Shown here one piece after another: positions 6,954 to 38,073 of a DNA stretch of 47,436 bases (positions are counted from its first letter, which is position 1; every line of letters begins with the position of its first letter). Position numbers and translations under genes: made by a program. The notes under the pieces were generated by a model. It saw only the letters and a program-made list of their open reading frames with translations, had not been told where the DNA came from and did not search any database. Source of the stretch: Candidatus Altarchaeum sp. (GTDB lineage: Archaea > Altiarchaeota > Altiarchaeia > Altiarchaeales > Altiarchaeaceae); the NCBI GenBank assembly GCA_018260615.1, contig JAGWDQ010000084.1:1-47436 (forward strand). The letters are read 5' to 3'.

Positions 6954-7096
6954 TTTAAAATTTTATTTTAATTTTTATTTTATAAATTTATTTTGCATTT
7001 ACTTTTATTTTTAAATTTCCGCTTTTTGCATTTACTTTTTTTGTTCCCTTTGTTTTTGTTGTGGTTTTCATATTCATTTTTATTATTTTATCACAA

Positions 7097-14344: not shown

Positions 14345-14584
14345 ATGACAATTAATGTATATGGAAATGTTACATTGGAAAGAGTTAAAAAAGAGATTGA
14401 AAACATGCTGCCCGAAGAACAATTGAATTTGATAGACATACTTATCCATAAATTAATATCGCAGAGAGTTGTCAGAAAGAAAACAACCGTGAATATTGCT
14501 GATTTTTATGGGTTATGCAGAGGTATGTGGAATAATGAAGATGCTCAGGAATATGTTAATAAATTAAGAGAAGAAAGAATATGA
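14345..14584 (+). CDS. Putative antitoxin (VapB-like)
   Basis: Small ORF with 'DFYGLCRGMW..EDAQEYVNKLREE' end; ATGA overlap with PIN gene. Confidence 0.6.
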   Translation: MTINVYGNVTLERVKKEIENMLPEEQLNLIDILIHKLISQRVVRKKTTVNIADFYGLCRGMWNNEDAQEYVNKLREERI

Positions 14585-22300: not shown

Positions 22301-23666
22301 TAGAATTATTGAGTTAATAATAAATAAAAGCTGGATGGATGAAAATTATGTAAATAAGAGAACGGTTAAATTATGGCATTATCTTGACGGATGGAAAGAA
22401 GTTCGCGTAAATGCAACAGAAAATGAATGTTTTATAAAGTTAACTGCACAAGTTGTTTCTTTCTCCTACTTTGCTCTTACGGCAAAATATGAACCGCAGC
22501 TGCAGATTGATGTATCTTCAATGATAGAAAATGAAATATTTTTCGTAAAAATTACATACGATTTAAAACCCGTTGCCAACGCGAGCGTAAAGTATAATGA
22601 CGAATATAAAAATACAGACACGAACGGAACGGTAAATTTTACTGCAAAGAGAGGAAAGTGCGAAATAATCGCGAGCAAAAAAGGATATATGCCATCTTCT
22701 TTATCAGTTTGTCCGAAACTAATTTTGAATATCAATTCGCCGGATAAAGTGACTGTCGGTGAAAAATTTGATGTAGTAGTTACGGATATTGAAGGAAATT
22801 TAATAAAAAATGTGAAAGTCATCGTAAAATATAATTCCGGAAAAACAGATATTGCAACGACTGACGAGAAAGGTTTGTGTACTTTTACTGCATCTGAAAA
22901 CGGAACGATAGTCATAACTGCACAGGGTGAAGAATATAAAAGTATGGAAAGTATAAGCACGATTGAAGCAAAAATTGAAGAAAGCAAAGACGATATGAAT
23001 TTACTTTATGTGTTGACTGGAATAATTCTTGCCGGAATTGTGATAGGATTTATAATTTTGAGATTCAAAAAAGTACAAAAATTTAAAACGGAAGAAACAG
23101 AAAAGTCGGAAGCAGAAGAAACAGAAAAATCGGAAGCAGAAGAAACAGAAAAGTCGGAAGCAGAAGAAACAGAAAAGTCGGAAGCAGAAGAAACAGAAAA
23201 ATCGGAAATATCGGAAACAGAAAAACTTCCGGAAAATGTCAGGTGTGTTCTGAATGAAAAGGAAATGAACGTAATAAATATATTATCAAAAGAGGATCAT
23301 CTAACTCAGACAGAAATTTGTTCCAAAATTGGCATTCCGCGGGCAACTGCAAGTTATTGTCTGAACAGATTGGAATTGCGGGGCATGATTAAAAGATTTG
23401 AAAAAAGAACGAGCAAAGTTGTGACCTTGGAAGAATGGGTTAAAAATGTGTTGTACGAAAGTAAAGGAAACGAATACTGGTTGAGAATTGTTCTTGCGCT
23501 ACGGGAAGAAAATAATTTAAATCAAAAAACATTATCAGAAAGGACAAATATTCCGGAAGCTACATTGTCAAACATTTTGCGAATAGTAGAAGAAAACGGA
23601 ATAATCAGAAAAGTAAAGCACGGAATGAGCGTAATCATTCAACTGGCAAAGTATCAAAAAAACTAA
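19308..23666 (+). CDS. Giant surface protein: Cys/Asp-rich MopE-like repeats, Ig-like domains, PGF-pre-PGF domain, TM, acidic linker, two C-terminal wHTH domains
   Basis: DADGDGYG...DCND...HPGATE.CN..DDNC repeats; KSW...LWHY..GWKEV...SFSYFAL; TM LYVLTGIILAGIVIGFIIL; LTQTEICSKIGIPRATASYCLNRLE.RGMI and LNQKTLSERTNIPEATLSNILRIVEENGII. Confidence 0.8.
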   Translation: MCLKMSNVNKDKLFPLMVTIVIVGLLLYFTPGFAITITINMPNGEIYRSGDVNAIEFNINITIPGNELIPINEVRFTIVDVHGNNRTCNLPLNNGSYEINCNDYNISVFVYDNCNYEYGHLNVKEPFNYTWGFGYGYGASNLGCNRSYNITWKLINPYPGNYTVEIKIISDGKEFIQKKKFTILHPCQDADGDGYGVCPNCNTTHNCTYDGDDCNDSNSGIHPGATEVCNNIDDNCNNQIDEGNVCFTTYYCDNDSDTYFDKQADGTCNSYKCVPAGCRITQGNDCNDTNTSIKPGAIEICENGIDEDCNGFDLKCGECQDADGDGYGVCPNCNNTLNNCIYNGNDCDDTNNLIHPGAAETCNGVDDNCDGITDISNGINTCPLITYYCDGDGDGYISNISSGTCSIYNCVPVNCSAIRGNDCNDNNNSIHPGATELYNGVDDNCNGLTDYGKGEITNFVITPAGRIIKNTDIEFKINFNNTGEMNLNVTPCINITKPDGTIISFIGNTTSLDEFSSSVLNITWKANLTPAYYTIKPYIIYEYGGIIKTATYNSTEIRILKQAGIAVRPKIVNVELNPNKKAEITLFIENTGEVKLENVALHSVTNNISIFNFTKNNFNLSNSNITAVTMYVTSNKTGYHTEQLQITANNANPVNVTFNVNVTSDAHAVVDKQETVYIINETQKEIPIKDTLNLQNTGNKTIINITINKTGTAKEFINIDNFTIPENLTEDNNLAINYTLSVPNNTSPGTYTTDVEICFVGSPVRCIYCSIDVIVLGSSIDVDISERMSPLDIKAGDTVKDIPVTLTNKGNETIIIHLIARDLISGEGKKISAENIKFSDNDVLLDASGYNKRVIYTDISVPPGTPPGIYSGEIEVREYGDNYEIRFEKSINMVINVPVQEIITDSYKGGGGGAGVRGTGTIPLPGQLTKSEAGIILTNSKHEGPLSITIILFTDVNGSVIITAPYFKEPADVVPLTDDFVVYFGIDLVNISNEDIKNRIIELIINKSWMDENYVNKRTVKLWHYLDGWKEVRVNATENECFIKLTAQVVSFSYFALTAKYEPQLQIDVSSMIENEIFFVKITYDLKPVANASVKYNDEYKNTDTNGTVNFTAKRGKCEIIASKKGYMPSSLSVCPKLILNINSPDKVTVGEKFDVVVTDIEGNLIKNVKVIVKYNSGKTDIATTDEKGLCTFTASENGTIVITAQGEEYKSMESISTIEAKIEESKDDMNLLYVLTGIILAGIVIGFIILRFKKVQKFKTEETEKSEAEETEKSEAEETEKSEAEETEKSEAEETEKSEISETEKLPENVRCVLNEKEMNVINILSKEDHLTQTEICSKIGIPRATASYCLNRLELRGMIKRFEKRTSKVVTLEEWVKNVLYESKGNEYWLRIVLALREENNLNQKTLSERTNIPEATLSNILRIVEENGIIRKVKHGMSVIIQLAKYQKN
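23091..23225 (+). repeat. In-frame 24-bp tandem repeat (EETEKSEA)x5
   Basis: GAAGAAACAGAAAARTCGGAAGCA units from 23091. Confidence 0.9.
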
Positions 23667-23974: not shown

Positions 23975-24973
23975 ATGAGCAGCATAAAAAGCATAAAAAA
24001 TAAAATTTTTGGAGGGATTAAAAGGGGGATAATAAAAGGGAAGAACAATAAAACAAAAACAAAAATATCCGATAAAAACAAAAATATAACACTATCTTTA
24101 ATATTGACAAGTGTTATAATTGGATTGCTGGTGTTTTCCGGATCGGGACCAGGAATAGTTGAAGAAGTTTCAGCAGCATCTGGTTTTGGGTATAAAGATG
24201 GTGATGGTGGTGCTCATCCAGATCCGGATGGTAGTAAAGGTATAACCACAATTACAGAAAAAACAATTGAAAAAAATGGAAAAACAATCTCATACTCTTA
24301 CACAAAAAATTATAAGGGAGAGATAATTGATGGAGTAGTAAGTGTTACAGATGAAAGTAAAATAAATATCAATGCGGGCAACAAAAACGTGATTATTACG
24401 GGTATAAACACTGGAACACTTAAAGATCCGGATAAAATGAACACATATAAAGAATGGGCAAAAGATAATGATGCTATTTTAGTTATATGTTATCCCAACA
24501 CGAACATATTCAGTGGAGTATTCCAAGTACTTGCAGCCAACTTTGGGATAAAAACCAAAGAAAACGGATTAAAAAATATAGAATCTATTAAGACCGAAGG
24601 AACTATCATAGCACATAGCGGAGGGGCAACAACACTTAATCAATTAACAAAAGAAAATAAGATAGCAGCCAAAGAAATAATATATTGCTCTCCACAACTC
24701 ATAACTCAAAAAGAACTTGAGTATATCAACGAGGGTAAAAATGAAGAGAAAAAAATAGCTATATATAGTATTACTGGAACGGGTGATGGGTCGAAGAATT
24801 ATGATTATATACTATTTTATAAACACAAATCAAACCAAGAAAACAACATAAAGGTATTACATCCTGATGGGGGTCATTCGAGTTATGTTGGAAAAACGAT
24901 AGAATATCTTAAAGGACCAAGCGAACAAGGTGATTGGTATACTCCAGAGGAACTTGGATATGCATATGTTTAA
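23975..24973 (+). CDS. Secreted protein, conserved signal region plus alpha/beta-hydrolase-like payload
   Basis: SLILTS.IIG.LVFSG.GPG...EVSA signal; IAHSGGA nucleophile-elbow-like motif. Confidence 0.55.
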   Translation: MSSIKSIKNKIFGGIKRGIIKGKNNKTKTKISDKNKNITLSLILTSVIIGLLVFSGSGPGIVEEVSAASGFGYKDGDGGAHPDPDGSKGITTITEKTIEKNGKTISYSYTKNYKGEIIDGVVSVTDESKININAGNKNVIITGINTGTLKDPDKMNTYKEWAKDNDAILVICYPNTNIFSGVFQVLAANFGIKTKENGLKNIESIKTEGTIIAHSGGATTLNQLTKENKIAAKEIIYCSPQLITQKELEYINEGKNEEKKIAIYSITGTGDGSKNYDYILFYKHKSNQENNIKVLHPDGGHSSYVGKTIEYLKGPSEQGDWYTPEELGYAYV

Positions 24974-25014: not shown

Positions 25015-25467
25015 ATGAAAAATACTATATCAAAAACGAAAATAAAAAATAACAGAAAAACAGAAATATTGAATGAAAACAAAGATAAAATACCATCTTT
25101 AATATTGACAAGTTTTATAATTGGAGTGTTAGTTTTTTCTGGACTGGGACCAGGAACAATTAAAGAAGTTTCAGCAGATTATAACCCTCCAGGATGGGGA
25201 GGAGGAGGAAGTATATATGGATATCCTCCTGATGCTTGGGTTGGTGATGGCCCAGATAAAAAAATGAGAAGTGGTGTGGGTACAATCCCACCAAAAGACA
25301 CTGATGTGGATTTTGTCAAAATCAATGGCGAATGGTGGAAGATAGCAGGACCCGTGTATATAGACGATAGGGGGAAGATATGGGGGTTGTGGCCGCCAAA
25401 GATTAGCAATGTAGACGAAAACGGGAATCCGTGGAATTGGGATTCATGTATTAACTACGGTTATTAA
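25015..25467 (+). CDS. Secreted protein with the same signal region and an unrelated Gly/Pro/Trp-rich payload
   Basis: SLILTSFIIGVLVFSGLGPGTIKEVSA nearly identical to the 23975 gene; rest dissimilar. Confidence 0.55.
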   Translation: MKNTISKTKIKNNRKTEILNENKDKIPSLILTSFIIGVLVFSGLGPGTIKEVSADYNPPGWGGGGSIYGYPPDAWVGDGPDKKMRSGVGTIPPKDTDVDFVKINGEWWKIAGPVYIDDRGKIWGLWPPKISNVDENGNPWNWDSCINYGY

Positions 25468-25521: not shown

Positions 25522-25872
25522 ATGCCATCAAATCAATACCAAAAAGTATTTATAGGATATGGATTTAATGTCAGCAGCGTGCAGAATATGATAAAACAAT
25601 ATAATAGCAGAATTGTAGTTTTAGAGGCTGAAAAATCGTTATACAATACCAGAACAAGTTCCATAGCATATTACCTCGTAGATAACAATGGATATACTTG
25701 TATTTGGATGAAAAAAGTCAAAAGAAAAAGATATCCTGAAAAAGTGTTGAAAATAGTACTCGTTCCGGAAAGTGAATCTACAGAGAAACCGGAAGAAAAT
25801 TCAGTTTCATTCCGTTCAAAGTTTTGGAGTGGCGTTCCTGATACATTCAAACATGAGGAACTTAAAAAATAA
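25522..25872 (+). CDS. Hypothetical protein
   Basis: 116-aa ORF, no family recognised, ends 4 nt before leader copy A. Confidence 0.35.
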   Translation: MPSNQYQKVFIGYGFNVSSVQNMIKQYNSRIVVLEAEKSLYNTRTSSIAYYLVDNNGYTCIWMKKVKRKRYPEKVLKIVLVPESESTEKPEENSVSFRSKFWSGVPDTFKHEELKK

Positions 25873-25876
25873 ATAA

Positions 25877-26016
25877 AGCCGAGCTTTTCTGTGCGGCGGC
25901 ATTTCGGTTCGGTGCCGGTTAAAAACACAGAAAATGCATACAGGCAAGAACCGGGCGCCGAGGAGGGGCGCTTTACAAGGTCAAACTACAATGGGAACCT
26001 TGCGTAAGTAAATACT
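25877..26016 (+). ncRNA. 140-nt structured leader, copy A
   Basis: Near-identical to B, C, D; stems TTTTCTGTG/CACAGAAAA, CGGCAT/GTGCCG, GCGCC/GGCGC, CAAGG/CCTTG; 29 nt before ATG 26046. Confidence 0.7.
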
Positions 26017-26045
26017 AAAAAAATAAATAGAGGGAGAAAGGTAAA

Positions 26046-27023
26046 ATGAAAAAAATTTTAATTATGTGTATAATTGCGGTTGTGGCTTTTGCATTGGTGA
26101 GCTTGAGTGTGAGTGCAGATAATTTGTCACTTAAAGTGATGAATATGGAAGGAAATCAAAATTGTATTGACTTAACACAAGATGCAAATTTTGAAGTAGA
26201 TGTCATCGTGAATCATGATAAGCCCGTTTTGGGAGCGGCATTTAATTTGAATTATGATACAAACGTTCTTGAAACGGTTCTAATGACCGAAGGAAGCGTA
26301 ATGCATGAATGTAGTTCAACATCTTATTCGATGGTGCCTCCAAATGATACGGGGTGCGGAAATATAACTTTTCAGGATGTGTGTTTTGGTGGAAGCACAA
26401 CAAAAAATGGAACGATATTCAAAGTAACATTCCATGTGAAACAAGATATTAACTGCACAAATATAAGTGTGACTAATGGAGAGTTGTTTAACACTTCCGG
26501 ATATCCAATAGGTGTGTCTAACACAAACTTAAAGATTTGCAAAAATCAACCACCTATTGCAAAAGCGGTATTCCCAACATGCGGATATACAGATGAAATA
26601 TTGATGTTTAATGGAAATGGTTCTTATGATCCGGATGGCTCCATAAAAAGTTATCTTTGGGCATTTGATGATGGATACTTTACGAACATTACTGACACTT
26701 GGAAAGCACATCACGCTTATTCCATACCGGGAATGTATTTCGCTTCATTGGCAGTGAGAGACAACTGCGAAGCATTGAGCGTTACATTTAATGCCCCGAA
26801 TGCAACATGCATATTGCTCTCAGGAGATGTTGACCATAACGGACTTGTTAATGTGTATGATCTTGCCCTGCTGGCAGCATCGTTTGATAAGTGCTGTCCA
26901 AATATAAATGCAAATGTAGATTTCAACGGGGATAAATGTGTTAATATTTTGGATGCCGCTAAATTAGCCGCGAACTGGGGAAAAACATACACTGTCACTT
27001 GTAACTGCAGTAAGATGTGTTAA
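26046..27023 (+). CDS. Secreted cohesin-PKD-dockerin protein (adaptor scaffoldin-like)
   Basis: Cohesin-like FEVDV...FNLNYDTNVL...G.ITF...NGTIFKVTF; PKD NQPPIA...GSYDPDG..YLWAFDDG; dockerin GDVDHNGLVNVYD...DFNGDKCVNILD. Confidence 0.75.
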   Translation: MKKILIMCIIAVVAFALVSLSVSADNLSLKVMNMEGNQNCIDLTQDANFEVDVIVNHDKPVLGAAFNLNYDTNVLETVLMTEGSVMHECSSTSYSMVPPNDTGCGNITFQDVCFGGSTTKNGTIFKVTFHVKQDINCTNISVTNGELFNTSGYPIGVSNTNLKICKNQPPIAKAVFPTCGYTDEILMFNGNGSYDPDGSIKSYLWAFDDGYFTNITDTWKAHHAYSIPGMYFASLAVRDNCEALSVTFNAPNATCILLSGDVDHNGLVNVYDLALLAASFDKCCPNINANVDFNGDKCVNILDAAKLAANWGKTYTVTCNCSKMC

Positions 27024-27098
27024 TAGAAACTATGCTGAAGAGATTGTAATTGTTTTTTATTTTTTTAATTTTTTTAAATAAAATTTACATTAAAAAAT

Positions 27099-28358
27099 TT
27101 GTTAAAATTTAATAACCGAAAGATGGAACAAAAATATATAATGTTGGGAATATTTGGCGTTATTTTGATGTTGTCAGTAGGAATAGTTGTATCTGAAAAC
27201 GCAAAGGAGTATAAAATTGAAACTGTCAGTGAAATTTTAAGTGAACATGTCGGAGGAGAAGCAGTCATCAGAATTAATATGTCCGGAGAAAATCTTCTCG
27301 GAACCGGGTTTGATGTTCTGTTTGACAATGAAATTCTGGAGGCAATATCTGTTGAAGAGGGAAGCATAATGAAAAAATGTAAAAAAACGACATTTGAAGC
27401 ACTTCCTCCTGAAATAAACAATACAAAAGGAATTGTGACATTTCAGGATCTCTGTCTGGGCGAGGCAGTCAGCGAAAATGGAAATGTTGCCGTTATAAAA
27501 TTCACATCAAAGAAAATCGGAAAAAGCTATATAAAGCTTAACAATACATACTTGTTTGACAAAAATGGAGATCCGATAAATATCTCTCCGGTACTTGCAG
27601 GAAATGTATTTGTAAGTGTTGGTCATCCGATGTATAATGCTTCGCTAAAAATTGAAAAGGTCTCCGGGGAAAAGTACGGAGACGTATTCGTATTTAAGGT
27701 CTTATCTGTTGAGGGAAAACCTGTTGAAGGTGCAAAAGTAAAAATTTTAAATAATGTCTTATATACGGATACAAATGGAACGGCAGAAATAATTCTGAAA
27801 CATACAGGAAATTTTGAAGTTGCTGCGGAAAAGGAAAATTACACTTCCTGTTCGGATATGTTTAATTTACAGCCATTGGGAAATTTAAAAATAATTGTGC
27901 CCGAGGATATAAATTTAGGTGACGAAATATCTATAAAGATAGCATATAGCAATGAAACTCCGGCAGGCGGCGTAAAAGTTAGCATAAAGGATGAAAGTTT
28001 TGTTACGGATGAAACCGGAGAAATAAAGTATAATATCGGGAAAGGAGTCGTTAAAATCAGTGCGGAGAAAGAAGGTTACAAGGGAGATGAGAAAGAAATA
28101 TTTGCAAAAGGGGGAATAGTTTGCGGAGACAAAAAGTGCGAAGGGAATGAGAATTGTAAAACATGCGAAGAGGACTGCGGAAAATGTATTGTCTGCGGAG
28201 ACAAAAAGTGCGAAGGGAATGAAACCGCTCAAAACTGTCCTGGAGATTGTGATTCGTCTTCATCAATGTGGACAATCATAGCTGTAATTGCTGCGATTGT
28301 AGTAATTATTCTGATAGTAGCAATAATAATGTCAAAAAAGAAAAAACAAAATAGATAA
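27099..28358 (+). CDS. Membrane-anchored cohesin protein (anchoring scaffoldin-like)
   Basis: Cohesin GFDVLFDNEIL...EGS...G.VTFQD...NGNVAVIKF; Ig-like PVEGAKV repeats; CGDKKCEGNE x2; C-terminal TM plus KKKKQNR tail. Confidence 0.75.
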   Translation: MLKFNNRKMEQKYIMLGIFGVILMLSVGIVVSENAKEYKIETVSEILSEHVGGEAVIRINMSGENLLGTGFDVLFDNEILEAISVEEGSIMKKCKKTTFEALPPEINNTKGIVTFQDLCLGEAVSENGNVAVIKFTSKKIGKSYIKLNNTYLFDKNGDPINISPVLAGNVFVSVGHPMYNASLKIEKVSGEKYGDVFVFKVLSVEGKPVEGAKVKILNNVLYTDTNGTAEIILKHTGNFEVAAEKENYTSCSDMFNLQPLGNLKIIVPEDINLGDEISIKIAYSNETPAGGVKVSIKDESFVTDETGEIKYNIGKGVVKISAEKEGYKGDEKEIFAKGGIVCGDKKCEGNENCKTCEEDCGKCIVCGDKKCEGNETAQNCPGDCDSSSSMWTIIAVIAAIVVIILIVAIIMSKKKKQNR

Positions 28359-28434
28359 TAAATAAATTTAGAAATTTGAAATTTGAATCTGCCACGAAGA
28401 CGGTTTAATCGTAGGGGTTTTGAAATTGAAATTT

Positions 28435-28574
28435 AGCCGAGCTTTTTTGTGCGGCGGCATTTCGGTTTGATGCCGAGTAAAAGCACAGAAAATGCATAAA
28501 GGCAAGAACCGGGCGCCGAGGAGGGGCGCTTTACAAGGTCAAACTACAATGGGAACCTTGCGTAAGTAAATACT
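28435..28574 (+). ncRNA. 140-nt structured leader, copy B
   Basis: Repeat of copy A, 43 nt before ATG 28618; 69/140 G+C. Confidence 0.7.
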
Positions 28575-28617
28575 CAAAAAATAAAGGAAATTTAAGAACA
28601 TATAAACAAAATATAAA

Positions 28618-30705
28618 ATGAAAGGTAAAATTTTAAGTAAACTGAAAAACAAAACTAAATGTGCCACCAGTGTCCATGAGAGAGCGGTTAATGGTTTTGG
28701 GCAAATATTAAATGAAAATTTAGGACGAAGTTTAATAGGTACCGTGATATTTTTGGGATTAGTTTTGGGTTTGAGTTGTGGCGTAAATGCCCACTATGAT
28801 TCCGATTGGCAAACTTTTAATAGTCAAGGTGGAGCTTGCTGTTGTTACGGTGATAATTGCCATGCTTGTCACACACAAGGAGGTTATTGTGGTTGTAAAG
28901 CATCTGGTTTTGGTTTGGTTTGGCTTCAAAAGCAGAATAAATGTAGAGATGGTGGAGACTATCACTTTTTGTGTGGTGGTGGCAATAAATTTAAATCCAG
29001 CTGTAATATAATGTGGGGTGCAGGAATGGGACAAACAGTTGATATTCCTTCTACAGGAGATTATTATGTTTCAATAATGGCTGAGTGGGATAATAAGGCA
29101 ACTGCTGAGAATCTCTATGTGGGAGTCAACAGTTGGGGTAGCAATACATACAGAAGACTTGCCCGTGACTTCAGTACTACAACAAAGTGTGTTTTTAAGA
29201 ATAAATTCAATATTAATTCAGACCCTGCAAAAATCTGGGTTGAATCTTCTGAGAATTCTGGTTCTGTTCATGTAAAAGTATTTAGGGTTTCAGATTGTAT
29301 TCCTGATATACCTGGGTTAGTTTATTGTGAGAGTGGTGATCCAGCAATTCCTAACTGTTGTTTTGACAATGATGGCGACGGCTACAACTCAACAGGCGGC
29401 ACCTGCGGACCAATTGACTGCAACGACAACAACAACCAAATTTACCCAGGAAGCTCACATTCTTGCGGATATTGCAACGGCACAACAGGAACAATATCAT
29501 ATTCTCCAACAACCACAATCTGCAGAGCATCAGCAGGAGATTGCGATAATGCAGAATATTGTTCTGGCTCGGGTTTAGATTGTCCATCAGATACATTTAA
29601 ACCAACAACACAAATTTGCAGAGCATCAGCAGGAGATTGCGACAGCGAAGAAAAATGTACAGGAACAACAGCAGCCTGCCCCTCAGATACATTTAAACCA
29701 ACAACACAAATCTGCAGAGCATCAGCAGGAGATTGCGACAGCGAAGAAAAATGTACAGGAACAACAGCAGCCTGCCCCTCAGATACATTTAAACCAACAA
29801 CACAAATCTGCAGAGCATCAGCAGGAGATTGCGACAGCGAAGAAAAATGTACAGGAACAACAGCAGCCTGCCCCTCAGATACATTTAAACCAACAACACA
29901 AATCTGCAGAGCATCAGCAGGAGATTGCGACAGCGAAGAAAAATGTACAGGAACAACAGCAGCATGTCCATCGGATACATTTAAACCAGCAGGGACATCC
30001 TGCTCAGACGGAACTTATTGCAACGGAGCAGAGACATGCAACGGAGCAGGAAATTGTCAAGCAGGAACAGCAATTAACTGCTCATCAAACAACCAACCAG
30101 CAATCGCAACCTGCACCAACAATCCAGATAATAACCCATTCACATGGGACAATAGACCAGCATTTACCTCAACCTGCAACGAAGCAACACAATCCTGCAC
30201 ATCTTCAACTCAAACACTAACGCACACCTGCAACCAATCCTGCGGAGGATGTTTATCAAACAGCGACTGCAATGACAACGATGCAGGAACAATCGACACT
30301 TGCAACACAACAACCTGCGGATGCGCACACGCAACCAGTTGCACAGACAACGATCACGACGGCTACAACTCAACAGGCGGCAGCTGCGGACCAATTGATT
30401 GCAATGACACCAACGCATCTATACATTCCGGAGCAACCGAAATTTATTGTAATGGTATAGATGAAGATTGTGATGGAGTTGATGCGTGCAACTGTCTTGG
30501 ATGTGTTCTAAAGCCAATTGGCGATGCAAATCAAGATAGATGTGTTAATAGTATAGATCTCACGATACTACAGAAAGCCTATGGACACATATATGGGGAT
30601 GTAAATTACGATGTAAGAGCAGACTTTAACTGTGACTGTAAAGTTGATATAAGGGATTTGGTGATCCTTATGAAAAACTGGCGAAAGCAATCTGTATGCA
30701 GTTGA
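28618..30705 (+). CDS. Secreted Cys-rich protein with disintegrin-like repeats, MopE-like motifs and C-terminal dockerin
   Basis: CRASAGDCD.EE.C.G....CPSD x5; DNDGDGYN...DCND; GDANQDRCVNSID...ADFNCDCKVDIRD. Confidence 0.75.
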   Translation: MKGKILSKLKNKTKCATSVHERAVNGFGQILNENLGRSLIGTVIFLGLVLGLSCGVNAHYDSDWQTFNSQGGACCCYGDNCHACHTQGGYCGCKASGFGLVWLQKQNKCRDGGDYHFLCGGGNKFKSSCNIMWGAGMGQTVDIPSTGDYYVSIMAEWDNKATAENLYVGVNSWGSNTYRRLARDFSTTTKCVFKNKFNINSDPAKIWVESSENSGSVHVKVFRVSDCIPDIPGLVYCESGDPAIPNCCFDNDGDGYNSTGGTCGPIDCNDNNNQIYPGSSHSCGYCNGTTGTISYSPTTTICRASAGDCDNAEYCSGSGLDCPSDTFKPTTQICRASAGDCDSEEKCTGTTAACPSDTFKPTTQICRASAGDCDSEEKCTGTTAACPSDTFKPTTQICRASAGDCDSEEKCTGTTAACPSDTFKPTTQICRASAGDCDSEEKCTGTTAACPSDTFKPAGTSCSDGTYCNGAETCNGAGNCQAGTAINCSSNNQPAIATCTNNPDNNPFTWDNRPAFTSTCNEATQSCTSSTQTLTHTCNQSCGGCLSNSDCNDNDAGTIDTCNTTTCGCAHATSCTDNDHDGYNSTGGSCGPIDCNDTNASIHSGATEIYCNGIDEDCDGVDACNCLGCVLKPIGDANQDRCVNSIDLTILQKAYGHIYGDVNYDVRADFNCDCKVDIRDLVILMKNWRKQSVCS
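29506..29985 (+). repeat. In-frame 96-bp tandem repeat x5 (32-aa disintegrin-like unit)
   Basis: Units start at 29506, 29602, 29698, 29794, 29890; the last four encode identical peptides. Confidence 0.92.
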
Positions 30706-30751
30706 TTTCAATAAATCTCTTTGCGAAATCGAGATACTTGTTGACGAAACC
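30653..30751 (+). repeat. 99-bp repeat: dockerin tail plus 3' hairpin, copy 1
   Basis: Near-identical to 32246-32344; hairpin TCAATAA-ATCTC...GAGAT-AC-TTGTTGA immediately after the TGA. Confidence 0.8.
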
Positions 30752-30882
30752 CTTTTTAAATTTTTTATTTTTTTTAAATTTTTCAGAATCAATCCAATCA
30801 TTTATAAATTCACAATCATTTTCATCAAAAATTAAGGAATAAAATTCCAGAGACAGAGTAACTGTAGGAATTAAAAAAATTT

Positions 30883-31022
30883 AGCCGAGCTTTTTTGTGC
30901 GGCGGCATTTCGGTTCGATGCCGAATAAAAGCACAGAAAATGCATAAAGGCGAGAACCGGGCGCCGAGGAGGGGCGCTTTACAAGGTCAAACTACAATGG
31001 GAACCTTGCGTAAGTAAATACT
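30883..31022 (+). ncRNA. 140-nt structured leader, copy C
   Basis: Repeat of copy A, 31 nt before ATG 31054. Confidence 0.7.
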
Positions 31023-31053
31023 CAAAAAAATAAAAGATAAAAAGAAAGGTAAA

Positions 31054-32298
31054 ATGCAAAAAAGAAATAAAATAGCGTCTTTACTGACAACTTTTATAGT
31101 CGGATTGATGATGTTTTTTGGGATGATTTCAAGTTCAGCAGCAACTTGTGTTTCATGGACACCAAATGTAGAACTTATTGGTAGTTGGTGGACTGGTTCG
31201 TTTAATTCGCCGACAACGGGAGAGCATAAATGTACTGTAACTGTGTGGGACTATGATAATGGTGGTTATTGGCTTCAAAATGAAGAGTATGACGATGTTT
31301 ACATAAATAGCCAATATATTGGAAAAACCACTGACTATAAATGTAATGAATGGTGCACAATTTCAGGGGGAGCGGGCCCTGATTGTCCTTTCACTGGAGA
31401 ATATAGATGGGACCATCCTGATAAACCAATTTGTAAGTACTATGGACCACCTATATCAAGTTCGGTTACCACAAATAGTGTAATTTTAAATCCAACAAAT
31501 AACATAATTGGATTATATGGACATCAGAGCCATAAGGTTTCAGAGGTCAAAGTATGTTGCGAACCAATTAACAAACCACCAAAAGCAAATGCCGGTCCTG
31601 ATCAAGTCGTTAATCACAGCAGCAGTTCATGTAGTGCGTTAGTAACTCTTGATGGATCTGGTTCAACTGATGATGGCTATATATCTCCCTTAACATATAA
31701 TTGGATATGGGTAGGAGGATCAACAACTGGGGTTACTCCTAAGGTAACTTTCATATTGGGAACAAGAACGGTAAATTTGACTGTCTACGATGGGCAATTT
31801 TATAATAAGGACACAGTCGACATCACGGTGCAGGATAAAACGCCACCAAACATAACATGTCCGCCGGATGTTACGGTATGGCAAGAAAGCAGGAACGGAA
31901 CTGTCGTAAACTTGACAGCAAATGCAACAGACATCTGCGATTCAAATGTAAGTATAACAAGCAATAAATTAGCAATATATCCTGTTGGCACAACAACTGT
32001 TACTTTCATTGCAACAGATGATTTTGGAAACAATGCAAGTTGTTCAACAAAGGTTACTGTACTATGCATGTGTATTTCAAGTCCGATTGGAGATACTAAC
32101 GGAGACGGGTGTGTGGATGAGAAAGATCTTACTATACTGTCGAGTGTGTACGGAAGCAGATTTGTATGGAATAATGATACCTGCAACACCGTAAGCGAGA
32201 ATGCGAGATTTTCCGACTTTAATTGTGATGGAAAAGTAGACAAACGGGATTTGGTGATCCTTATGAAAAACTTCCGAAAGCAATCCATATGCAGTTGA
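31054..32298 (+). CDS. Secreted protein: unknown N-domain, PKD-like, HYR, C-terminal dockerin
   Basis: NKPPKANAGPDQ...LDGSGS; DKTPPNITCP...TVTFIATDDFGN; GDTNGDGCVDEKD...DFNCDGKVDKRD. Confidence 0.75.
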   Translation: MQKRNKIASLLTTFIVGLMMFFGMISSSAATCVSWTPNVELIGSWWTGSFNSPTTGEHKCTVTVWDYDNGGYWLQNEEYDDVYINSQYIGKTTDYKCNEWCTISGGAGPDCPFTGEYRWDHPDKPICKYYGPPISSSVTTNSVILNPTNNIIGLYGHQSHKVSEVKVCCEPINKPPKANAGPDQVVNHSSSSCSALVTLDGSGSTDDGYISPLTYNWIWVGGSTTGVTPKVTFILGTRTVNLTVYDGQFYNKDTVDITVQDKTPPNITCPPDVTVWQESRNGTVVNLTANATDICDSNVSITSNKLAIYPVGTTTVTFIATDDFGNNASCSTKVTVLCMCISSPIGDTNGDGCVDEKDLTILSSVYGSRFVWNNDTCNTVSENARFSDFNCDGKVDKRDLVILMKNFRKQSICS

Positions 32299-32344
32299 TT
32301 TCAATAAATCTCTTTGCGAAATTGAGATACTTGTTGACGAAACC
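32246..32344 (+). repeat. 99-bp repeat: dockerin tail plus 3' hairpin, copy 2
   Basis: Near-identical to 30653-30751. Confidence 0.8.
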
Positions 32345-32374
32345 ATTTTTAAATTTTTTTATTTTTAAATTTTA

Positions 32375-32514
32375 AGCCGAGCTTTTCTGTGCGGCGGCAT
32401 TTCGGTTTGATGCCGAGTAAAAGCACAGAAAATGCATAAAGGCGAGAACCGGGCGCCGATGAGGGGCGCTTTACAAGGTCAAACTACAATGGGAACCTTG
32501 CGTGAGTAAATACT
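32375..32514 (+). ncRNA. 140-nt structured leader, copy D
   Basis: Repeat of copy A, 27 nt before ATG 32542. Confidence 0.7.
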
Positions 32515-32541
32515 CAAAAAAAATTGTGAAATTAAAAGAAA

Positions 32542-32922
32542 ATGACGATAAATAAAAACACATTATTTGCGTTAATAGCTACAGGAGTAATGGTGGGGGC
32601 TTTAGTGATGACTGGTGCAAATCCATCAAATGGTTCGTGCGATCCGTGCGGAAAATGTGGAAGTGCAACTTGTGAGTATTGGCCCGGATCCGGTGCTTGT
32701 TTTGGATATGGATATGTGGGTACGGGTTGTATCGGAGATGTGAACAACGATAAAAAGATAAATCATGAGGATCTTGTTTTACTTCAACAAGCTTATGGTT
32801 CTCATAAAGGTGACCCAAAATACAATCAGAATCCAAGGGCAGATCTAAATTGTGATGGCAAAGTGGACATAAGAGATTTGGTCTTGCTGGCAAAAAATTT
32901 CGGAAAAACCTGCTGCCCATAA
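32542..32922 (+). CDS. Small secreted Cys-rich peptide fused to a dockerin
   Basis: Signal peptide, CDPCGKCGSATCEYWPGSGAC, GDVNNDKKINHED...ADLNCDGKVDIRD. Confidence 0.75.
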   Translation: MTINKNTLFALIATGVMVGALVMTGANPSNGSCDPCGKCGSATCEYWPGSGACFGYGYVGTGCIGDVNNDKKINHEDLVLLQQAYGSHKGDPKYNQNPRADLNCDGKVDIRDLVLLAKNFGKTCCP

Positions 32923-33097: not shown

Positions 33098-33721
33098 TCA
33101 TTGACCAATTAACTCATTAATTTTCTTAACTACTTTTCCGGAATCAAAATAAAGTTCCGCTCCGAACTCATTCATTTCTTTATGGATTATATCTTTATCA
33201 AAATCCTTTGTATTCTTATTCAAATGTATTCTAACTCCCTTATTTTCTTTTACAAAGGCATTGATTGATTCATAGATAGATGCGTCAGGTTCCGGAAGTC
33301 CGTATAATCCGTTAAGAGTCATCAAAAATGCGTTTTTATGAATCTCTGTTGTATATGGGATGATTACGGAGACATCCTTTATACTTTGGATAAAGCCATC
33401 AATAATTTCTTTATCTTTATTGACACTCTCTTCAATCAATTTCCCTATGTTTTTCATTTGTTCAGATAATATATGACCATGCTCGCTGCGTTTCATCTGG
33501 TTTGCTTCTTCTTTAAGGGCAATAGATAATTCTAATCTTCTTTTAGATTTTTTTGTAAAAACACTCCACATTTCATGAAGAGATATTTCCGGTACGACTA
33601 ACTTTATTCTACCTGCCAATACAAGGTCAAATAGATATGCTACATTTTTATCCTGCTGGTATCCTAAATCAACCACAAAATTGGTCTCACCAATCAGATA
33701 AATAATCTGATTACTGTCCAC
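33098..33721 (-). CDS. PIN-domain-like protein
   Basis: LIGETNFVV, VVPEISLHE, PEPDASIY...LNKNTKDF. Confidence 0.6.
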   Translation of the reverse strand: MDSNQIIYLIGETNFVVDLGYQQDKNVAYLFDLVLAGRIKLVVPEISLHEMWSVFTKKSKRRLELSIALKEEANQMKRSEHGHILSEQMKNIGKLIEESVNKDKEIIDGFIQSIKDVSVIIPYTTEIHKNAFLMTLNGLYGLPEPDASIYESINAFVKENKGVRIHLNKNTKDFDKDIIHKEMNEFGAELYFDSGKVVKKINELIGQ

Positions 33722-34136: not shown

Positions 34137-35090
34137 TTGATGACTATGAAGAAAGCGTATTCTAAAAGGAAAAAGAAACAAAATAAACCAAAGCAAAAGC
34201 ATGTAATCTGCAAATATCTGTTTGACTGGGACGATGTTCCCGGAAAAGATGACAAGAAATTAAAGGACTTTTTGAAAGAGAGATTTTATATCAGCTGGGT
34301 TAAAAATGCGAAAATAGAAAAAAGCAAAAAAAATGGCGAAGAAGTAATTTCCGTAGTTTCTGCCGTTGATTCTCAAAAATTTGTCAACCTGCGATATAAA
34401 AAAGATGAATATAAAGTGACACTTAAGACAGACAAAAACTTATGCGATGAATTGATAGTCAGGAAAGAGGATAATTTATTAAAAATTTACTGCGAGTTGA
34501 TAACCATAGAAAATATACTTGCTTCAATTAAATTAAATTTAGAAGACACCGAATCGGATTATATTGAAACATGCGAATCATCTTCAAAAAAACTGAATTT
34601 GAAAAGAATCATGGAGTGCAAAGATTCCGGCTTCATTTACGATAAATGCAGATTTCCGTGTTTAGTATACAGAATTAAAAATCCCGAACTGGCGATGCTG
34701 GTATTTAATTCCGGAAATATTATTTGCACGGGTGCTAAAAAGGAAGAAGATGTCTATCGGGCAAAAGATATATTGTTCGGGAAGTTTGAGAGCATTGGCA
34801 TTCATTTAAACTGGGAATCATCGAAGGTGCATGTTCAAAATATAGTTGCTTCAGCGATGTTTTATTCCATGATAGATCTGGACATTTTGGCGGACTGCGA
34901 AAATACGGGATACGAGCCGGAGATATTTTCCGGACTTACTTACAAACTCAAAGACCCGAAAACGGCTATGCTTATATTCAGATCGGGAAAGATTGTTATT
35001 ACGGGAGCGGGTAGCACGGAAGCGGCAATTATGGCGGCAGAAAAGACAAAAAAATTAATAATGGATGCAAATGCCATAATAGTTGAATGA
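34137..35090 (+). CDS. tbp: Divergent TATA-box binding protein with ~120-aa N-terminal extra domain
   Basis: Two TBP repeats: ENILAS...FPCLVYRI..P..AMLVFNSGNIICTGAK and QNIVAS...YEPEIFSGLTYK...MLIFRSGKIVITGA. Confidence 0.8.
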   Translation: MMTMKKAYSKRKKKQNKPKQKHVICKYLFDWDDVPGKDDKKLKDFLKERFYISWVKNAKIEKSKKNGEEVISVVSAVDSQKFVNLRYKKDEYKVTLKTDKNLCDELIVRKEDNLLKIYCELITIENILASIKLNLEDTESDYIETCESSSKKLNLKRIMECKDSGFIYDKCRFPCLVYRIKNPELAMLVFNSGNIICTGAKKEEDVYRAKDILFGKFESIGIHLNWESSKVHVQNIVASAMFYSMIDLDILADCENTGYEPEIFSGLTYKLKDPKTAMLIFRSGKIVITGAGSTEAAIMAAEKTKKLIMDANAIIVE

Positions 35091-35933: not shown

Positions 35934-36992
35934 ATGTCAAACAAATATATTGTTCCGATAGGGGTCTTAATTGCAGCAGTCCTGATAAGTGTGGGGGGAT
36001 TTTTAATTTTAAATCCGTATCAGCCGGGTTCACCTGATAATGCACCGGATAATGATTCGTATGTTGAACCTTCGGAAGGTGAAGCACATTCATTTATGCC
36101 GGAATTAAAGGTAACAGAAGATGCATCAAAACAGAATGCCGATGTTCCGCTCAAGGTTGGAAAAAAGTATGAATACAAAACAACAATGCAAAATACTTAT
36201 GAAGATATGGAGTGCAAGACAAAAGAAAGCGAAGAAGAGTATTACAGAAGAATGCAGATGTATTATAGCGGGATGGATGAAAAGGGCAATAATAATTTAA
36301 CACAACCCGAACTTCCGCCGGGATGCGAACGCAAGAATAAGACAACTACAACAAGTAGCACAACAGAATACAATGTTGAAAAGACAGAAAGGGCTGAAGG
36401 AAAGGATTGTTATGTTGTTAGCGTAAAGCCAAAACAGGATATGGAAGAAATAAAAAAGAGCATAAGAGAATATAAGAGTGATGCAAGTGAAGAAGAAATT
36501 GAGAAAATGGCAGAACAACAGAAAGCGATGGCGGAACAGCAAACGACAACATATTATTACGACAAAGAAAACGGGAAGATAATTAAAATTGTGATGAAAA
36601 TGGGAAATACCGAAATGACCTATACGGAGGATTTGGCAAATGTTATGTCAACTATGATGGGGATGTATATGGGATTTCCTGTGCTCAGCCAGTGGATGCT
36701 CGCATTAGATGAAAATTTCAGATGGATTCAGACCATAGAAGAAAAAGGAGGGGAGAAACACAAAGCAGAAATAGAGTATAAATTTGTTGAAACTGAAAAG
36801 GCAAACAACAGGGAATGTTTTAAGGTTGAAATAACACTCAAAGATAAATCGTCTGTAAAATCAGAAGGGTATAGTTCAATGGATATGAAAACGATTGTCT
36901 GGATAGATAAAGAAAAAAGAATTTTGGTTAAATCACAGACAAAAGCAGAAGGTCTAATGACTTCTGAAACAAATTTAATTCCCGAAAGTTAG
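35934..36992 (+). CDS. Membrane-anchored hypothetical protein, paralog 1 of 3
   Basis: MSNKYIV + TM; QWMLALDENF.W; VWIDKEKRILVK. Confidence 0.65.
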   Translation: MSNKYIVPIGVLIAAVLISVGGFLILNPYQPGSPDNAPDNDSYVEPSEGEAHSFMPELKVTEDASKQNADVPLKVGKKYEYKTTMQNTYEDMECKTKESEEEYYRRMQMYYSGMDEKGNNNLTQPELPPGCERKNKTTTTSSTTEYNVEKTERAEGKDCYVVSVKPKQDMEEIKKSIREYKSDASEEEIEKMAEQQKAMAEQQTTTYYYDKENGKIIKIVMKMGNTEMTYTEDLANVMSTMMGMYMGFPVLSQWMLALDENFRWIQTIEEKGGEKHKAEIEYKFVETEKANNRECFKVEITLKDKSSVKSEGYSSMDMKTIVWIDKEKRILVKSQTKAEGLMTSETNLIPES

Positions 36993-37030
36993 GACTAAAC
37001 TTTTGATAAAAATTTAAAAAAATTTATAAA

Positions 37031-38035
37031 ATGTCAAACAAATATATTGTTTCGACAGGGGTTTTAATAGTAACAATATTAATAATTGTTGGTGGTTTTT
37101 TAATCTTTTCTCCTTTATATCAAGGCGAAGATGATAAAAGAAATATTAGCAATAATGACTCTTATTTTGAACCGGTAGTAAGCAACGCACATCTGCCAGC
37201 ACTTGTAGTGACAGAAGCGGAATTAAAGCCGAATGCAAAAGTTCCGTTTGCTGTTGGAAAGAAATATGAATATAAAACCATAGCACAAGCATCATTCGGA
37301 GTGGCTGATTGTAAAGAACCTCAGGAAATTAATGGACATTTAGAAATTGTTGAATCAACTGCTATTTATACGAATATGGATGGAAGTGAAAAATTACCTG
37401 AGGGTTGTGTAATGAAGAATATGACCTCCACACAAAAGGCCAATGTAGAGTTTTATGTTAAAGGAATAGAAAGAGTTGAAAATGAGGATTGTTATGTTGT
37501 TTCTGCTAAAATAGAACAAGAAACTCCTGCAGGACAAGATACATCAGAAAAGGGAAATATGAAATCTTATGACATATCAAGTGGAATGATGGAGCAACAA
37601 AATATGACTTATTATTACAATAAAGAAACAGGAAAGATGATGAAAATTGTAATAAAAAATAGAAATACTGAGACAACCTATACAAAGGACTTGGCAAATG
37701 CTATGCTAACTACGCAAGGTGGGAATATGCCATTCTTAGTGTTCAGTCAATGGATGCTCTCATTAGATGAGAATTTTAACTGGATTCAAACAAAAGAAGA
37801 TAAAGAGTGGGGGCATAAAGCTAAAATAGAATACAAAGTGGTCGGTGTTGAAAAAATAAACAATAAGGACTGCTTTAAGGTTGAGATAATGACCAAAGAT
37901 AAATCCTATTTGAATATAACAACAGAAACAAAAATGACGATTTGGGTAGATAAAGAAAAAAGAATTTTGGTTAAGGCAGACGAAAGAGAAGAAGGTAGTG
38001 TGACCGCAGAAACAAATTTAATTTCCGAAAGTTAG
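37031..38035 (+). CDS. Membrane-anchored hypothetical protein, paralog 2 of 3
   Basis: Same terminal motifs as paralog 1. Confidence 0.65.
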   Translation: MSNKYIVSTGVLIVTILIIVGGFLIFSPLYQGEDDKRNISNNDSYFEPVVSNAHLPALVVTEAELKPNAKVPFAVGKKYEYKTIAQASFGVADCKEPQEINGHLEIVESTAIYTNMDGSEKLPEGCVMKNMTSTQKANVEFYVKGIERVENEDCYVVSAKIEQETPAGQDTSEKGNMKSYDISSGMMEQQNMTYYYNKETGKMMKIVIKNRNTETTYTKDLANAMLTTQGGNMPFLVFSQWMLSLDENFNWIQTKEDKEWGHKAKIEYKVVGVEKINNKDCFKVEIMTKDKSYLNITTETKMTIWVDKEKRILVKADEREEGSVTAETNLISES

Positions 38036-38073
38036 GACTAAACTTTTGATAAAAATTTATAAAAATTTAAAAA

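Follow-up and report, generated by a model that had tools for sequence, protein, structure and literature searches.

A predicted membrane-tethered, non-enzymatic cohesin–dockerin assembly encoded by a five-gene locus of Candidatus Altiarchaeum

Introduction

Bacterial cellulosomes are recognized by a multi-cohesin scaffoldin carrying a CBM, by dockerin-bearing CAZymes and by anchoring through SLH domains or sortase, and two dockerin specificities give these assemblies their hierarchy. Single-cohesin proteins also belong to them, either as adaptors that combine one cohesin with one dockerin, such as ScaC of Ruminococcus flavefaciens, or as monovalent scaffoldins that anchor one cohesin to the envelope, such as OlpA and OlpC of Clostridium thermocellum. 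In Archaeoglobus fulgidus (PDB 2xdh) and in ANME archaea, cohesins and dockerins occur on non-CAZyme secreted proteins, with no cellulose degradation. The ANME examples comprise multi-cohesin proteins, solute-binding-protein cargos and dockerin proteins with S-layer domains (Chadwick et al. 2022, PMC9012536), and in the A. fulgidus work cited there archaeal cohesin–dockerin pairs are reported to bind specifically. No paper linking the Altiarchaeales with cohesin was found in the literature searched.

Altiarchaeum is an abundant, uncultivated primary producer of the subsurface, with biofilms, grappling-hook appendages and a rare double membrane. The locus described here lies on a contig of Ca. 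Altiarchaeum, in a window of 47,436 nucleotides (the whole stretch of DNA analysed), and most likely encodes a cohesin–dockerin system of a known kind in a new lineage and layout. Unlike in A. fulgidus and the ANME archaea, a full set is found in a single 6.9-kb locus, where an anchor ending in a transmembrane (TM) helix is joined by an adaptor with one cohesin and by three cargos that share a dockerin subtype. The outer-membrane and hamus-anchoring components of Altiarchaeum are still unknown (PMC4500143) and, since the cell has two membranes, "surface" may here mean the inter-membrane space.

Domain Composition of the Five Proteins

Five genes on the forward strand make up the locus (26046–32922), encoding an adaptor, an anchor and three cargo proteins that end in a dockerin. 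The ORF coordinates were checked, and an N-terminal hydrophobic signal segment was seen by hydropathy on all five proteins. Domains were called with Pfam profiles at curated cut-offs (24.1 bits for Cohesin, PF00963; 22.9 bits for Dockerin_1, PF00404). Both cohesins and the three cargo dockerins exceeded these values, and the adaptor dockerin was borderline. An earlier note on this DNA had proposed a five-gene cohesin–dockerin set, and our data bear this out: all ORFs were recovered at their coordinates, their domains were matched by Pfam, and the identity of the modules was upheld by profile search, by motif and, for the adaptor cohesin, by fold.

The adaptor (26046–27023, 325 aa) consists of a signal peptide, a cohesin (residues ~25–165), a PKD domain (167–243) and a dockerin (260–313). 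The cohesin scored 44.8 bits (46.0 in a six-frame search) and PKD_4 51.5 bits, while Dockerin_1 reached 21.4 bits in hmmscan, against the cut-off of 22.9, and 23.1 bits in the six-frame search. Among PDB sequences, this dockerin matched the Cel48 cellulosomal dockerin 2y3n_B (6e-7, phmmer), and the PKD domain matched that of ColH (1.8e-16). The calcium loops of the adaptor dockerin are DVDHNGLVNVYD and DFNGDKCVNILD. An AF2 model of residues 20–165 (pLDDT 88.6, pTM 0.83) was all-beta, and its best ~50 Foldseek matches in the PDB were all cohesins (TM ~0.7), including that of A. fulgidus (2xdh), on which it superposed with an E-value of 2.5e-8 and a TM of 0.69. The cohesins of Clostridium thermocellum OlpA/OlpC (3ul4, 4dh2) were also among the matches. 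As modelled, the adaptor module has the nine-stranded flattened beta-sandwich (jelly-roll) fold of cohesins. A single-sequence AF2 prediction of the entire adaptor (pLDDT 37) was not usable.

The anchor (27099–28358, 419 aa) carries a signal peptide, a cohesin (residues 57–157), two CarboxypepD_reg Ig-like domains, two copies of a Cys motif (CGDKKCEGNE...C..DC) and, in a Kyte–Doolittle scan, a C-terminal TM helix (386–416) followed by the tail KKKKQNR. Its true start is probably the ATG at 27123, giving a protein of 411 aa, and this 411-aa form is present in the database. Pfam detected the cohesin with 31.4 bits (34.8 in the six-frame search), as well as the CarboxypepD_reg-like Ig domains. 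A PDB sequence search with the anchor gave no match at E ≤ 1, a metagenome scan with the same query returned no relative, and GG_III-CTERM matched only weakly, below threshold. The TM helix and Lys tail would place the anchor most simply in the cytoplasmic membrane.

Cargo 1 (28618–30705, 695 aa, 9.8% Cys) comprises a signal segment (residues 35–58), an N-domain, MopE-type Cys/Asp motifs, five disintegrin-loop repeats and a dockerin (636–690), with Pfam scores of 53.3 bits in five stretches for Disintegrin (cut-off 35.1), 40.6 bits for the MopE motif and 26.6 bits for Dockerin_1. The repeats are encoded by a 96-nt tandem array detected by TRF and, as families D1/D5, by repeat finding (29506–29988; five copies, four of them 98–100% identical), each unit corresponding to 32 aa with an ADAM-type loop. 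Within the ADAM/snake-venom disintegrin profile (PF00200) they align to positions 45–75, the loop half at its C-terminal end, and they show the pattern CR...DCD...C.G...CP.D; in contrast to ADAM disintegrins, cargo 1 has the loop half only, tandemly amplified, and in an archaeon without integrins. No Pfam family was found for its N-domain, and ESM Atlas look-alikes of residues 59–230 were galactose-binding-like/DUF642/CBM_4_9 proteins (0.91), which we take as a lead only.

Cargo 2 (31054–32298, 414 aa) contains a signal peptide, an N-domain (residues 28–172), a PKD-like domain, an HYR domain and a dockerin (347–409). HYR scored 36.8 bits and Dockerin_1 34.3 bits, PKD was weak, and the N-domain had no known family in Pfam and gave no lead in the ESM Atlas. 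Cargo 3 (32542–32922, 126 aa), with a signal peptide, a Cys-rich peptide of ~30 aa and a dockerin (66–122; Dockerin_1, 41.0 bits), is essentially a bare dockerin.

No CAZyme or protease family was detected among the five proteins (Pfam, E ≤ 0.1), in line with what the note had held, and the cargos carry binding-type modules. The features that define a cellulosome were likewise absent from the locus: no protein has more than a single cohesin, Pfam showed no CBM family, none of the cargos is a dockerin-bearing CAZyme (Pfam, E ≤ 0.1), and at its C-terminus the anchor has a TM helix with a Lys tail in place of SLH domains or a sortase signal. The description of the system as archaeal and non-cellulosomal thus stands, given its archaeal host. 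The locus shares with bacterial scaffoldins a predicted single cohesin-plus-dockerin adaptor and a predicted single-cohesin envelope anchor, but differs from them in its C-terminal TM anchoring and in having neither a CBM nor an enzyme cargo.

Two Dockerin Classes and the Predicted Chain

All four dockerins of the locus contain two 12-residue loops of the form D-x-[ND]-x-[DN]-x6-[DE], each followed by a helix; both calcium loops are also present in the dockerins of two other contigs of this genome (C130 and C88) and of the genome G003. The cargo dockerins are 48–58% identical to one another (cargo 1 vs. cargo 2, 55%; cargo 1 vs. cargo 3, 58%), and their second repeat is nearly invariant (D[FL]NCD.KVD.RD LV.L.KN), whereas the adaptor dockerin shares 35–41% identity with them and differs in both repeats. 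Judged by sequence, the locus contains two dockerin subtypes, a cargo subtype and an adaptor subtype, recalling the two specificities that underlie hierarchy in bacterial cellulosomes. The cohesins of the anchor and the adaptor are only 28% identical (E 1.5e-17) and, together with the two dockerin subtypes, this fits a two-tier anchor–adaptor–cargo chain. The parts named earlier for such a chain were all identified, namely one TM cohesin, one cohesin-plus-dockerin protein and three cargos with a common dockerin subtype. The pairing scheme derived from these classes is a prediction, and other pairings are conceivable: the anchor might receive the cargo dockerins without an intermediate, or the partner of the adaptor might be the anchor encoded on contig C130.

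Cohesins and Dockerins in the Genome and Its Relatives

A six-frame search of the 2.2-Mb genome (G000) yielded three Pfam-level cohesins and about six dockerins, of which two and four, respectively, fall within the 6.9 kb of the locus. The third cohesin, on C130, also adjoins a dockerin gene, and this clustering is far from chance. The order of a cohesin-plus-dockerin protein followed by a cohesin-stalk-TM-Lys anchor recurs on C130 in a diverged form: the stalk/TM part of the anchor studied here is 35% identical to the C130 anchor, and the dockerin protein of C130 has an N-domain that may be cohesin-like, with an hhalign cohesin probability of only 10% and 27% BLAST identity to the C130 anchor. 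On C88, a C25 peptidase with a dockerin was the sole dockerin-bearing enzyme found in the genome, so a protease cargo exists elsewhere. The claim of a complete, self-contained system was therefore too strong, given this peptidase and the second adaptor-like/anchor pair.

An orthologue of the C130 adaptor–anchor pair was found in G001 (contig C42), and contig C147 of G003 encodes a CARDB-Coh-Doc protein, a Coh-TM anchor and a Coh-only protein (Pfam). Regarding synteny, the adaptor-then-anchor order therefore recurs in congeners, but searches of three further species genomes from the genus did not recover the five-gene locus, which indicates that it is not a core function. A synteny comparison looking for a possible insertion placed homologues of FtsY and TBP on separate contigs in a related MAG. 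In one family of eight genomes (f3), a dockerin was present in all eight and a detectable cohesin in one. The many relatives having dockerins without detectable cohesins suggest that such dockerins need not always act through cohesins.

A Repeated Element Upstream of the Dockerin Genes

A GC-rich repeat of ~145 nt precedes all four dockerin genes in one orientation, with copies 95–97% identical. Copies lie before the adaptor gene (25877–26027; repeat family D2, BLAST 95%, CM R1 105.8 bits), cargo 1 (28432–28617), cargo 2 (30880–31037; BLAST 97%) and cargo 3 (32372–32536; 94%), all on the forward strand. All four were recovered by repeat finding, alignment and CM R1, and the first three also by BLAST. 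Only one further, partial copy occurs elsewhere in the genome, and no Rfam family matched the element at gathering or lenient thresholds. The presence of a near-identical element before the four dockerin genes suggests that they are probably co-regulated.

The element always ends at a fixed distance ahead of the start codon, and an invariant GTAAATAC is found 35–50 nt before each ATG. This motif could be a TATA box, in which case the element would lie upstream of the promoter and outside the mRNA. The RNA fold of the second copy had a free energy of −43.9 kcal/mol (z = −1.88). Across seven copies of the 3′ domain, 98.7% of cells were paired, compared with 30–54% when the partners were slid. 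Two-sided changes comprised one clean case in helix 1 (G003) and four in helix 2, the latter from G060 alone and with a one-base register shift in the alignment; in helix 1, pairs that change from G-U to A-U speak for a sense-strand RNA. The earlier note had assigned the system its own dedicated leader RNA. The repeat is real and may be a leader RNA, but it is not dedicated, since diverged copies stand before non-dockerin genes in G003 and G060.

Proposed Assembly and Alternative Explanations

We propose, with a probability of roughly two in three, that the products of the five genes form a small cohesin–dockerin assembly that depends on Ca2+, has no enzymatic part and is fastened to the Ca. 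Altiarchaeum cell membrane; its internal pairing, calcium dependence, location, function and regulation we infer. The anchor would be a type I membrane protein which, after removal of its signal peptide, is held in the cytoplasmic membrane by its C-terminal helix and Lys tail, its two Ig-like domains and two Cys motifs forming the stalk for a single cohesin. The secreted adaptor most likely plugs its distinct dockerin into this cohesin, and the three cargos, with their common dockerin subtype, are most likely competitors for the cohesin of the adaptor. Each anchor would thus display one exchangeable head, either the disintegrin-repeat protein, the PKD/HYR protein or a bare dockerin (cargo 3) that could serve as a cap. 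Since the heads resemble binding modules, their most likely role is not catalysis but binding, whether to a ligand, to some surface or to a further component of the envelope. A role in adhesion or biofilm may be conjectured.

The same assembly might instead work between the two membranes of Altiarchaeum, organising or tethering periplasm-like proteins or linking components of the outer membrane or the hami to the inner membrane, and would then not expose adhesins on the cell exterior. Such a placement would suit a cell with a double membrane whose outer-membrane parts and hamus anchors have yet to be identified (PMC4500143), an anchor with a plain TM helix, a positive inside tail and no recognisable outer-membrane targeting feature, and the three LolA-like/DUF3108-like paralogues, albeit weak matches, located 3 kb downstream. 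The sequence itself does not assign a compartment, however, and the ectodomain chain from anchor to cargo is long, with PKD, HYR and disintegrin-like modules typical of exposed adhesins. We regard this location as unlikely. Far less credible is the view that the modules are unpaired, so that the dockerins would bind calcium for stability or bind some other ligand, and the cohesin-like domains would be mere Ig-like spacers in secreted proteins that have nothing to do with each other. Dockerins without cohesins are indeed common in related genomes, but the concentration of both module types at the locus, the recurrence of adaptor–anchor gene pairs at three diverged loci, the two matched classes of each module and the binding of archaeal pairs reported in the A. 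fulgidus work that PMC9012536 cites all argue against it.

The repeats also raise the question of a cassette array, in which the element would be a recombination site like the attC/VCR of chromosomal integrons and the cohesin–dockerin content would be incidental to mobility. Four near-identical repeats in the same orientation between gene units would be expected of such an array, and cargo genes 1 and 2 have a common 3′ end (152 nt at 89% identity) but unrelated middles; the absence of the locus from the congeners examined points the same way. However, no integrase/Xer family was found among the window's ORFs of 100 aa or more, to which this search was confined, and the element has just the one partial copy outside the locus, keeps, in the manner of a promoter or leader, a set distance from the start codon, and is single in G060, where it follows a homologous small ORF. 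The gene contents, sockets and plugs, are moreover functionally matched and not random. We consider a cassette array improbable.

The membrane-tethered assembly, as predicted, would extend the cohesin–dockerin principle in archaea to a membrane-helix-anchored, monovalent, two-tier, non-enzymatic layout, which could supply orthogonal parts for synthetic protein display. The locus provides envelope proteins that make up a compact, self-consistent group and whose mutual binding is open to in vitro work on recombinant modules without culturing, and it offers candidates for envelope study in an organism whose outer-envelope proteins and appendage-anchoring factors are still unknown (PMC4500143).

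A small ORF of 116 aa without a signal peptide (25522–25872, forward strand) lies directly upstream of the first element copy and is a candidate partner of the element. It had no Pfam/NCBIfam family, and a word-indexed protein search gave no match beyond an ORF of G060. In a speculative and rather doubtful extension of the proposed assembly, the 116-aa protein would be a regulator that binds the element, as RNA or as DNA, and thereby chooses the head in a single membrane-anchored socket, making the envelope system switchable; the small ORF plus element would then be a device, not described before, by which Altiarchaeia regulate Cys-rich proteins secreted to the envelope, perhaps for attachment to partners such as hami, biofilm matrix or episymbionts. 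The G060 homologue, an ORF of 122 aa (36% identity over 84 aa, E 2e-15), lies directly upstream of the single R1 element of that genome, which is followed by a secreted Cys-rich gene.

Domain Organization of the Five Proteins and Predicted Fold of the Adaptor Cohesin

The five ORFs of the locus (26046–32922) are carried by the forward strand and start at positions 26046, 27099 (probable start 27123), 28618, 31054, and 32542, and each of the five proteins has an N-terminal signal segment. Pfam analysis assigned a cohesin, a PKD, and a dockerin domain to the adaptor (26046–27023), and a cohesin followed by CarboxypepD_reg-type Ig-like domains to the anchor (27099–28358), the only one of the five to end in a TM helix followed by KKKKQNR. 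Cargo 1 (28618–30705) contains five Disintegrin domains, a MopE motif, and a dockerin, cargo 2 (31054–32298) PKD-like, HYR, and dockerin domains, and cargo 3 (32542–32922) a dockerin alone, preceded by a ~30-aa Cys-rich peptide. The curated cut-offs were reached by every domain except the dockerin of the adaptor (21.4 bits, cut-off 22.9). That dockerin reached 23.1 bits in a six-frame search, has two canonical Ca loops, and matched the cellulosomal dockerin 2y3n_B (phmmer, 6e-7). No CAZyme or protease family was detected in the five proteins by Pfam, corroborating, together with the coordinates and domain assignments, an earlier note that had described five cohesin/dockerin ORFs lacking such motifs.

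An exhaustive HMMER search of 1.84 billion representatives (E ≤ 1e-3) returned 63 cohesin relatives, many of which are multi-cohesin proteins. The adaptor cohesin was modeled by AF2 from an alignment of such relatives (A3, 23 sequences) as an all-beta domain (pLDDT 88.6, pTM 0.83). When this model was compared with the PDB by Foldseek, the best ~50 matches were all cohesins (TM ~0.7), one of them 2xdh, a non-cellulosomal cohesin from A. fulgidus; for the module tested, the adaptor cohesin, the predicted fold is therefore not other than that proposed from the sequence. Members of the A3 subfamily, including both window cohesins, share a conserved Cys pair (consensus ...K.C...T.....P.I.N..GKI.F.D.C.G...), which suggests a putative intradomain disulfide or metal site; we know of no such site in classical cellulosomal cohesins.

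No enzyme family was found in cargos 1–3 with the HMM libraries used. Cargo 1 has a Cys content of 9.8%, and its five ADAM-type disintegrin-loop repeats (32 aa each) are the product of a tandem array of 96-nt units, the last four of them 98–100% identical. This near-identity points to a recent amplification, with copy-number variation or assembly collapse being possible. The N-domain of cargo 1 shows a galactose-binding-like/CBM-type resemblance, a language-model lead only. The PKD and HYR modules of cargo 2 are Ig-like, and cargo 3, an almost bare dockerin, could serve as a cap or a competitor. "Adhesin-like" is a reasonable, if putative, label for the cargos.

A Predicted Anchor–Adaptor–Cargo Chain

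Cellulosomes are organized hierarchically by pairing different dockerin classes with different cohesins. Identity among the three cargo dockerins is 48–58%, with a nearly invariant repeat 2 (loop D[FL]NCD.KVD.RD, helix LV.L.KN) and a variable repeat 1; the adaptor dockerin shares 35–41% identity with this group and departs from it in repeats 1 and 2 alike, and the adaptor and anchor cohesins share 28% identity. The simplest reading of these sequences would be that the cargo dockerins bind the adaptor cohesin and that the adaptor dockerin binds the anchor cohesin. With one cohesin per scaffold, the anchor:adaptor:cargo stoichiometry would then be 1:1:1, with the three cargos in competition for a single socket.

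Monovalent anchoring and adaptor scaffoldins offer the closest likeness to this predicted minimal hierarchical chain. In contrast to a cellulosome, the locus has no multi-cohesin scaffoldin, CBM, CAZyme cargo, or SLH or sortase anchoring; the system thus fails every defining cellulosome feature and was rightly described as archaeal and non-cellulosomal. Archaeal modules of this kind are established in A. fulgidus, in ANME archaea, and in the survey of Peer et al., as relayed in PMC9012536, and no report linking Altiarchaeales to cohesins was found in the literature searched.

Recurrence in the Genome and in Related Genomes

Cohesins were found in 10, and dockerins in 20, of the 41 genomes of the class. 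The third and last cohesin of the genome is located on contig C130, in a 757-aa anchor paralogue containing MopE motifs, two CarboxypepD_reg domains, two CGD..C...C..DC motifs, a TM helix, and KKKK. The gene directly 5' encodes a 295-aa dockerin protein whose N-domain is possibly cohesin-like, and the pair has orthologues in a related genome, G001. On contig C88 (5887–8256, minus strand), a 789-aa Peptidase_C25 protein (gingipain family) ends in a dockerin nearest to the C130 subtype and may be an enzyme cargo of the C130 anchor; dockerin matches in frames of 792 aa and 793 aa in G001 and G002 may be its counterparts. A third cohesin cluster, without sequence kinship to the others, was found in G003 (contig C147, 139–3743), and encodes a CARDB-cohesin-dockerin protein (474 aa), a CGDGKC...C..DC repeat protein (191 aa), a cohesin-TM-KKK anchor (260 aa), and a cohesin-only protein (216 aa) with a C-terminal half-dockerin-like CDVNHDG motif.

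The anchor had only six database matches, and no close homologue of the adaptor was found in the genomes available for three other species of the genus. A system of this kind is thus typical of the lineage, and the particular locus of five genes resembles an expansion that is species-specific and evolving fast.

Among the nearest cohesin relatives are proteins of Altiarchaeota with hypothetical or beta-helix annotations. Two right-handed beta-helix/NosD proteins are encoded by a Candidatus Altiarchaeota MAG under consecutive accessions: P0022 has a Pfam cohesin, PKD, and MopE motifs, and P0019, in which Pfam identifies no cohesin, was matched by HMMER through the query cohesin only. The hamus protein, as published, has a NosD domain (PMC4975002), and, given the NosD domains common to both, it is worth examining whether cohesin modules are linked to hamus-like proteins.

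The Upstream Element

Four copies of a GC-rich repeat (D2; ~145-nt core, 95–97% identical) stop 20–45 nt 5' of the adaptor start codon and of those of the three cargo genes, and the coding sequences that follow are unrelated from copy to copy; no copy precedes the anchor. The predicted fold comprises three hairpins (−43.9 kcal/mol, z −1.88), and no Rfam family was matched. Diverged copies of the 3' domain were detected by BLAST and a covariance model (R1) on C139 of the same genome, on C108 of G003, upstream of a gene for a 214-aa protein without a signal peptide, and on C246 of G060, upstream of a gene for a secreted Cys-rich protein. Across seven copies of this domain, 98.7% of cells pair, compared with 30–54% with slid partners. 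A clean two-sided change was observed only once (in G003, GCGCC/GGCGC to GCACC/GGTGC); helix 2 adds four to the count, all of them from G060, whose register is shifted by one base in the model-fitted alignment. Changes from G-U to A-U favor a sense-strand RNA.

D2 is thus a possible leader RNA. However, an invariant GTAAATAC found 35–50 nt 5' of each ATG of the four D2-preceded genes could be a TATA box, which would place the element 5' of the promoter and outside the mRNA. T-runs are present 3' of the adaptor and cargo genes, suggesting that these may be separate transcription units. The "own dedicated leader RNA" of the earlier note is real as a conserved ~145-nt repeat, but "dedicated" was incorrect, as copies precede non-dockerin genes in G003 and G060.

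The repeat-gene-repeat layout and the 3' ends common to cargo genes 1 and 2 (repeat family D3) would also fit a cassette array of repeat-separated genes, but no recombinase was found among the scanned ORFs of at least 100 aa in the window and the fixed position of the element 5' of the start codons agrees poorly with such an array, which we consider highly improbable. It is unlikely that the cohesin and dockerin modules do not interact, because of their clustering and the recurrent adaptor–anchor pairs. Altiarchaeum forms subsurface biofilms and has hami and a double membrane, the components of the outer membrane being unknown (PMC4500143); an assembly located between the two membranes would be consistent with this envelope, although we regard it as rather doubtful.

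Neighboring Secreted Genes and Contig Setting

Directly 5' of the first D2 copy, a 116-aa ORF (25522–25872) is homologous to a 122-aa ORF (36% identity, E 2e-15) that lies directly 5' of the G060 element, and a weaker relative in G021 is likewise 5' of a secreted-protein gene. No Pfam or NCBIfam family was assigned to the 116-aa ORF, and a word-indexed protein search gave no further match. The module formed by small ORF, element, and secreted gene is not confined to genes of the cohesin-dockerin type.

Two secreted proteins that lack a dockerin (23975–24973 and 25015–25467, plus strand) belong to no Pfam or NCBIfam family; their Lys-rich N-region and signal segment are 83% identical as DNA (repeat family D4), followed by complete divergence, and an AHSGG motif in the first could be a serine-hydrolase nucleophile elbow. 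Adjoining this secreted-protein block on its upstream side, the gene at 19308–23666 (plus strand) encodes a protein of 1452 aa in which a signal peptide is accompanied by a ~1200-aa ectodomain of module types common to the anchors (MopE Cys/Asp motifs, PGF-pre-PGF, CarboxypepD_reg), one TM helix (1229–1257), an acidic spacer (ETEKSEA)x5, and a cytoplasmic pair of winged-helix domains (MarR/TrmB/ArsR-like, with weak similarity to Lrs14). The protein resembles a membrane-tethered one-component regulator, and a search of a related MAG gave no full-length counterpart. Two large Beta_propel (PF09826) proteins are encoded at 4986–9736 (minus strand); the second, of 879 aa, has an N-terminal ArsR-type HTH and is a further example of a DNA-binding domain fused to an extracytoplasmic-type domain.

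Contig C84, which is the window, belongs to an assembly of 2.2 Mb (148 contigs, ~87% complete). The gene content of the contig is archaeal (TBP, CDC48, FtsY, and HTH-fused beta-propeller proteins), its GC content is ~34%, and its FtsY is 77–91% identical to Candidatus Altarchaeum/Altiarchaeales MAG proteins. The TBP (34137–35090, plus strand, 317 aa) has an N-terminal extension of ~130 aa, and a related MAG encodes homologues of this extension within many unrelated proteins, with eight other frames matching query residues ~9–157. Three tandem paralogues of ~340 aa each (35934–39099, plus strand) gave weak LolA_like/DUF3108 matches (outer-membrane lipoprotein-sorting-like folds), which is notable for an archaeon with a second membrane. 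A 530-aa TnpB-like protein (43440–45032, minus strand; OrfB_IS605 and Cas12f1-like TNB domain) is encoded next to the CDC48 gene. Toxin-antitoxin-type genes (MazF/PemK, a HEPN and nucleotidyltransferase pair, and three PIN-domain proteins) are dense at 832–2837, 13706–14113, 14581–15048, and 33098–33721, and a PIN_12 gene lies directly downstream of the cohesin-dockerin locus on the opposite strand.
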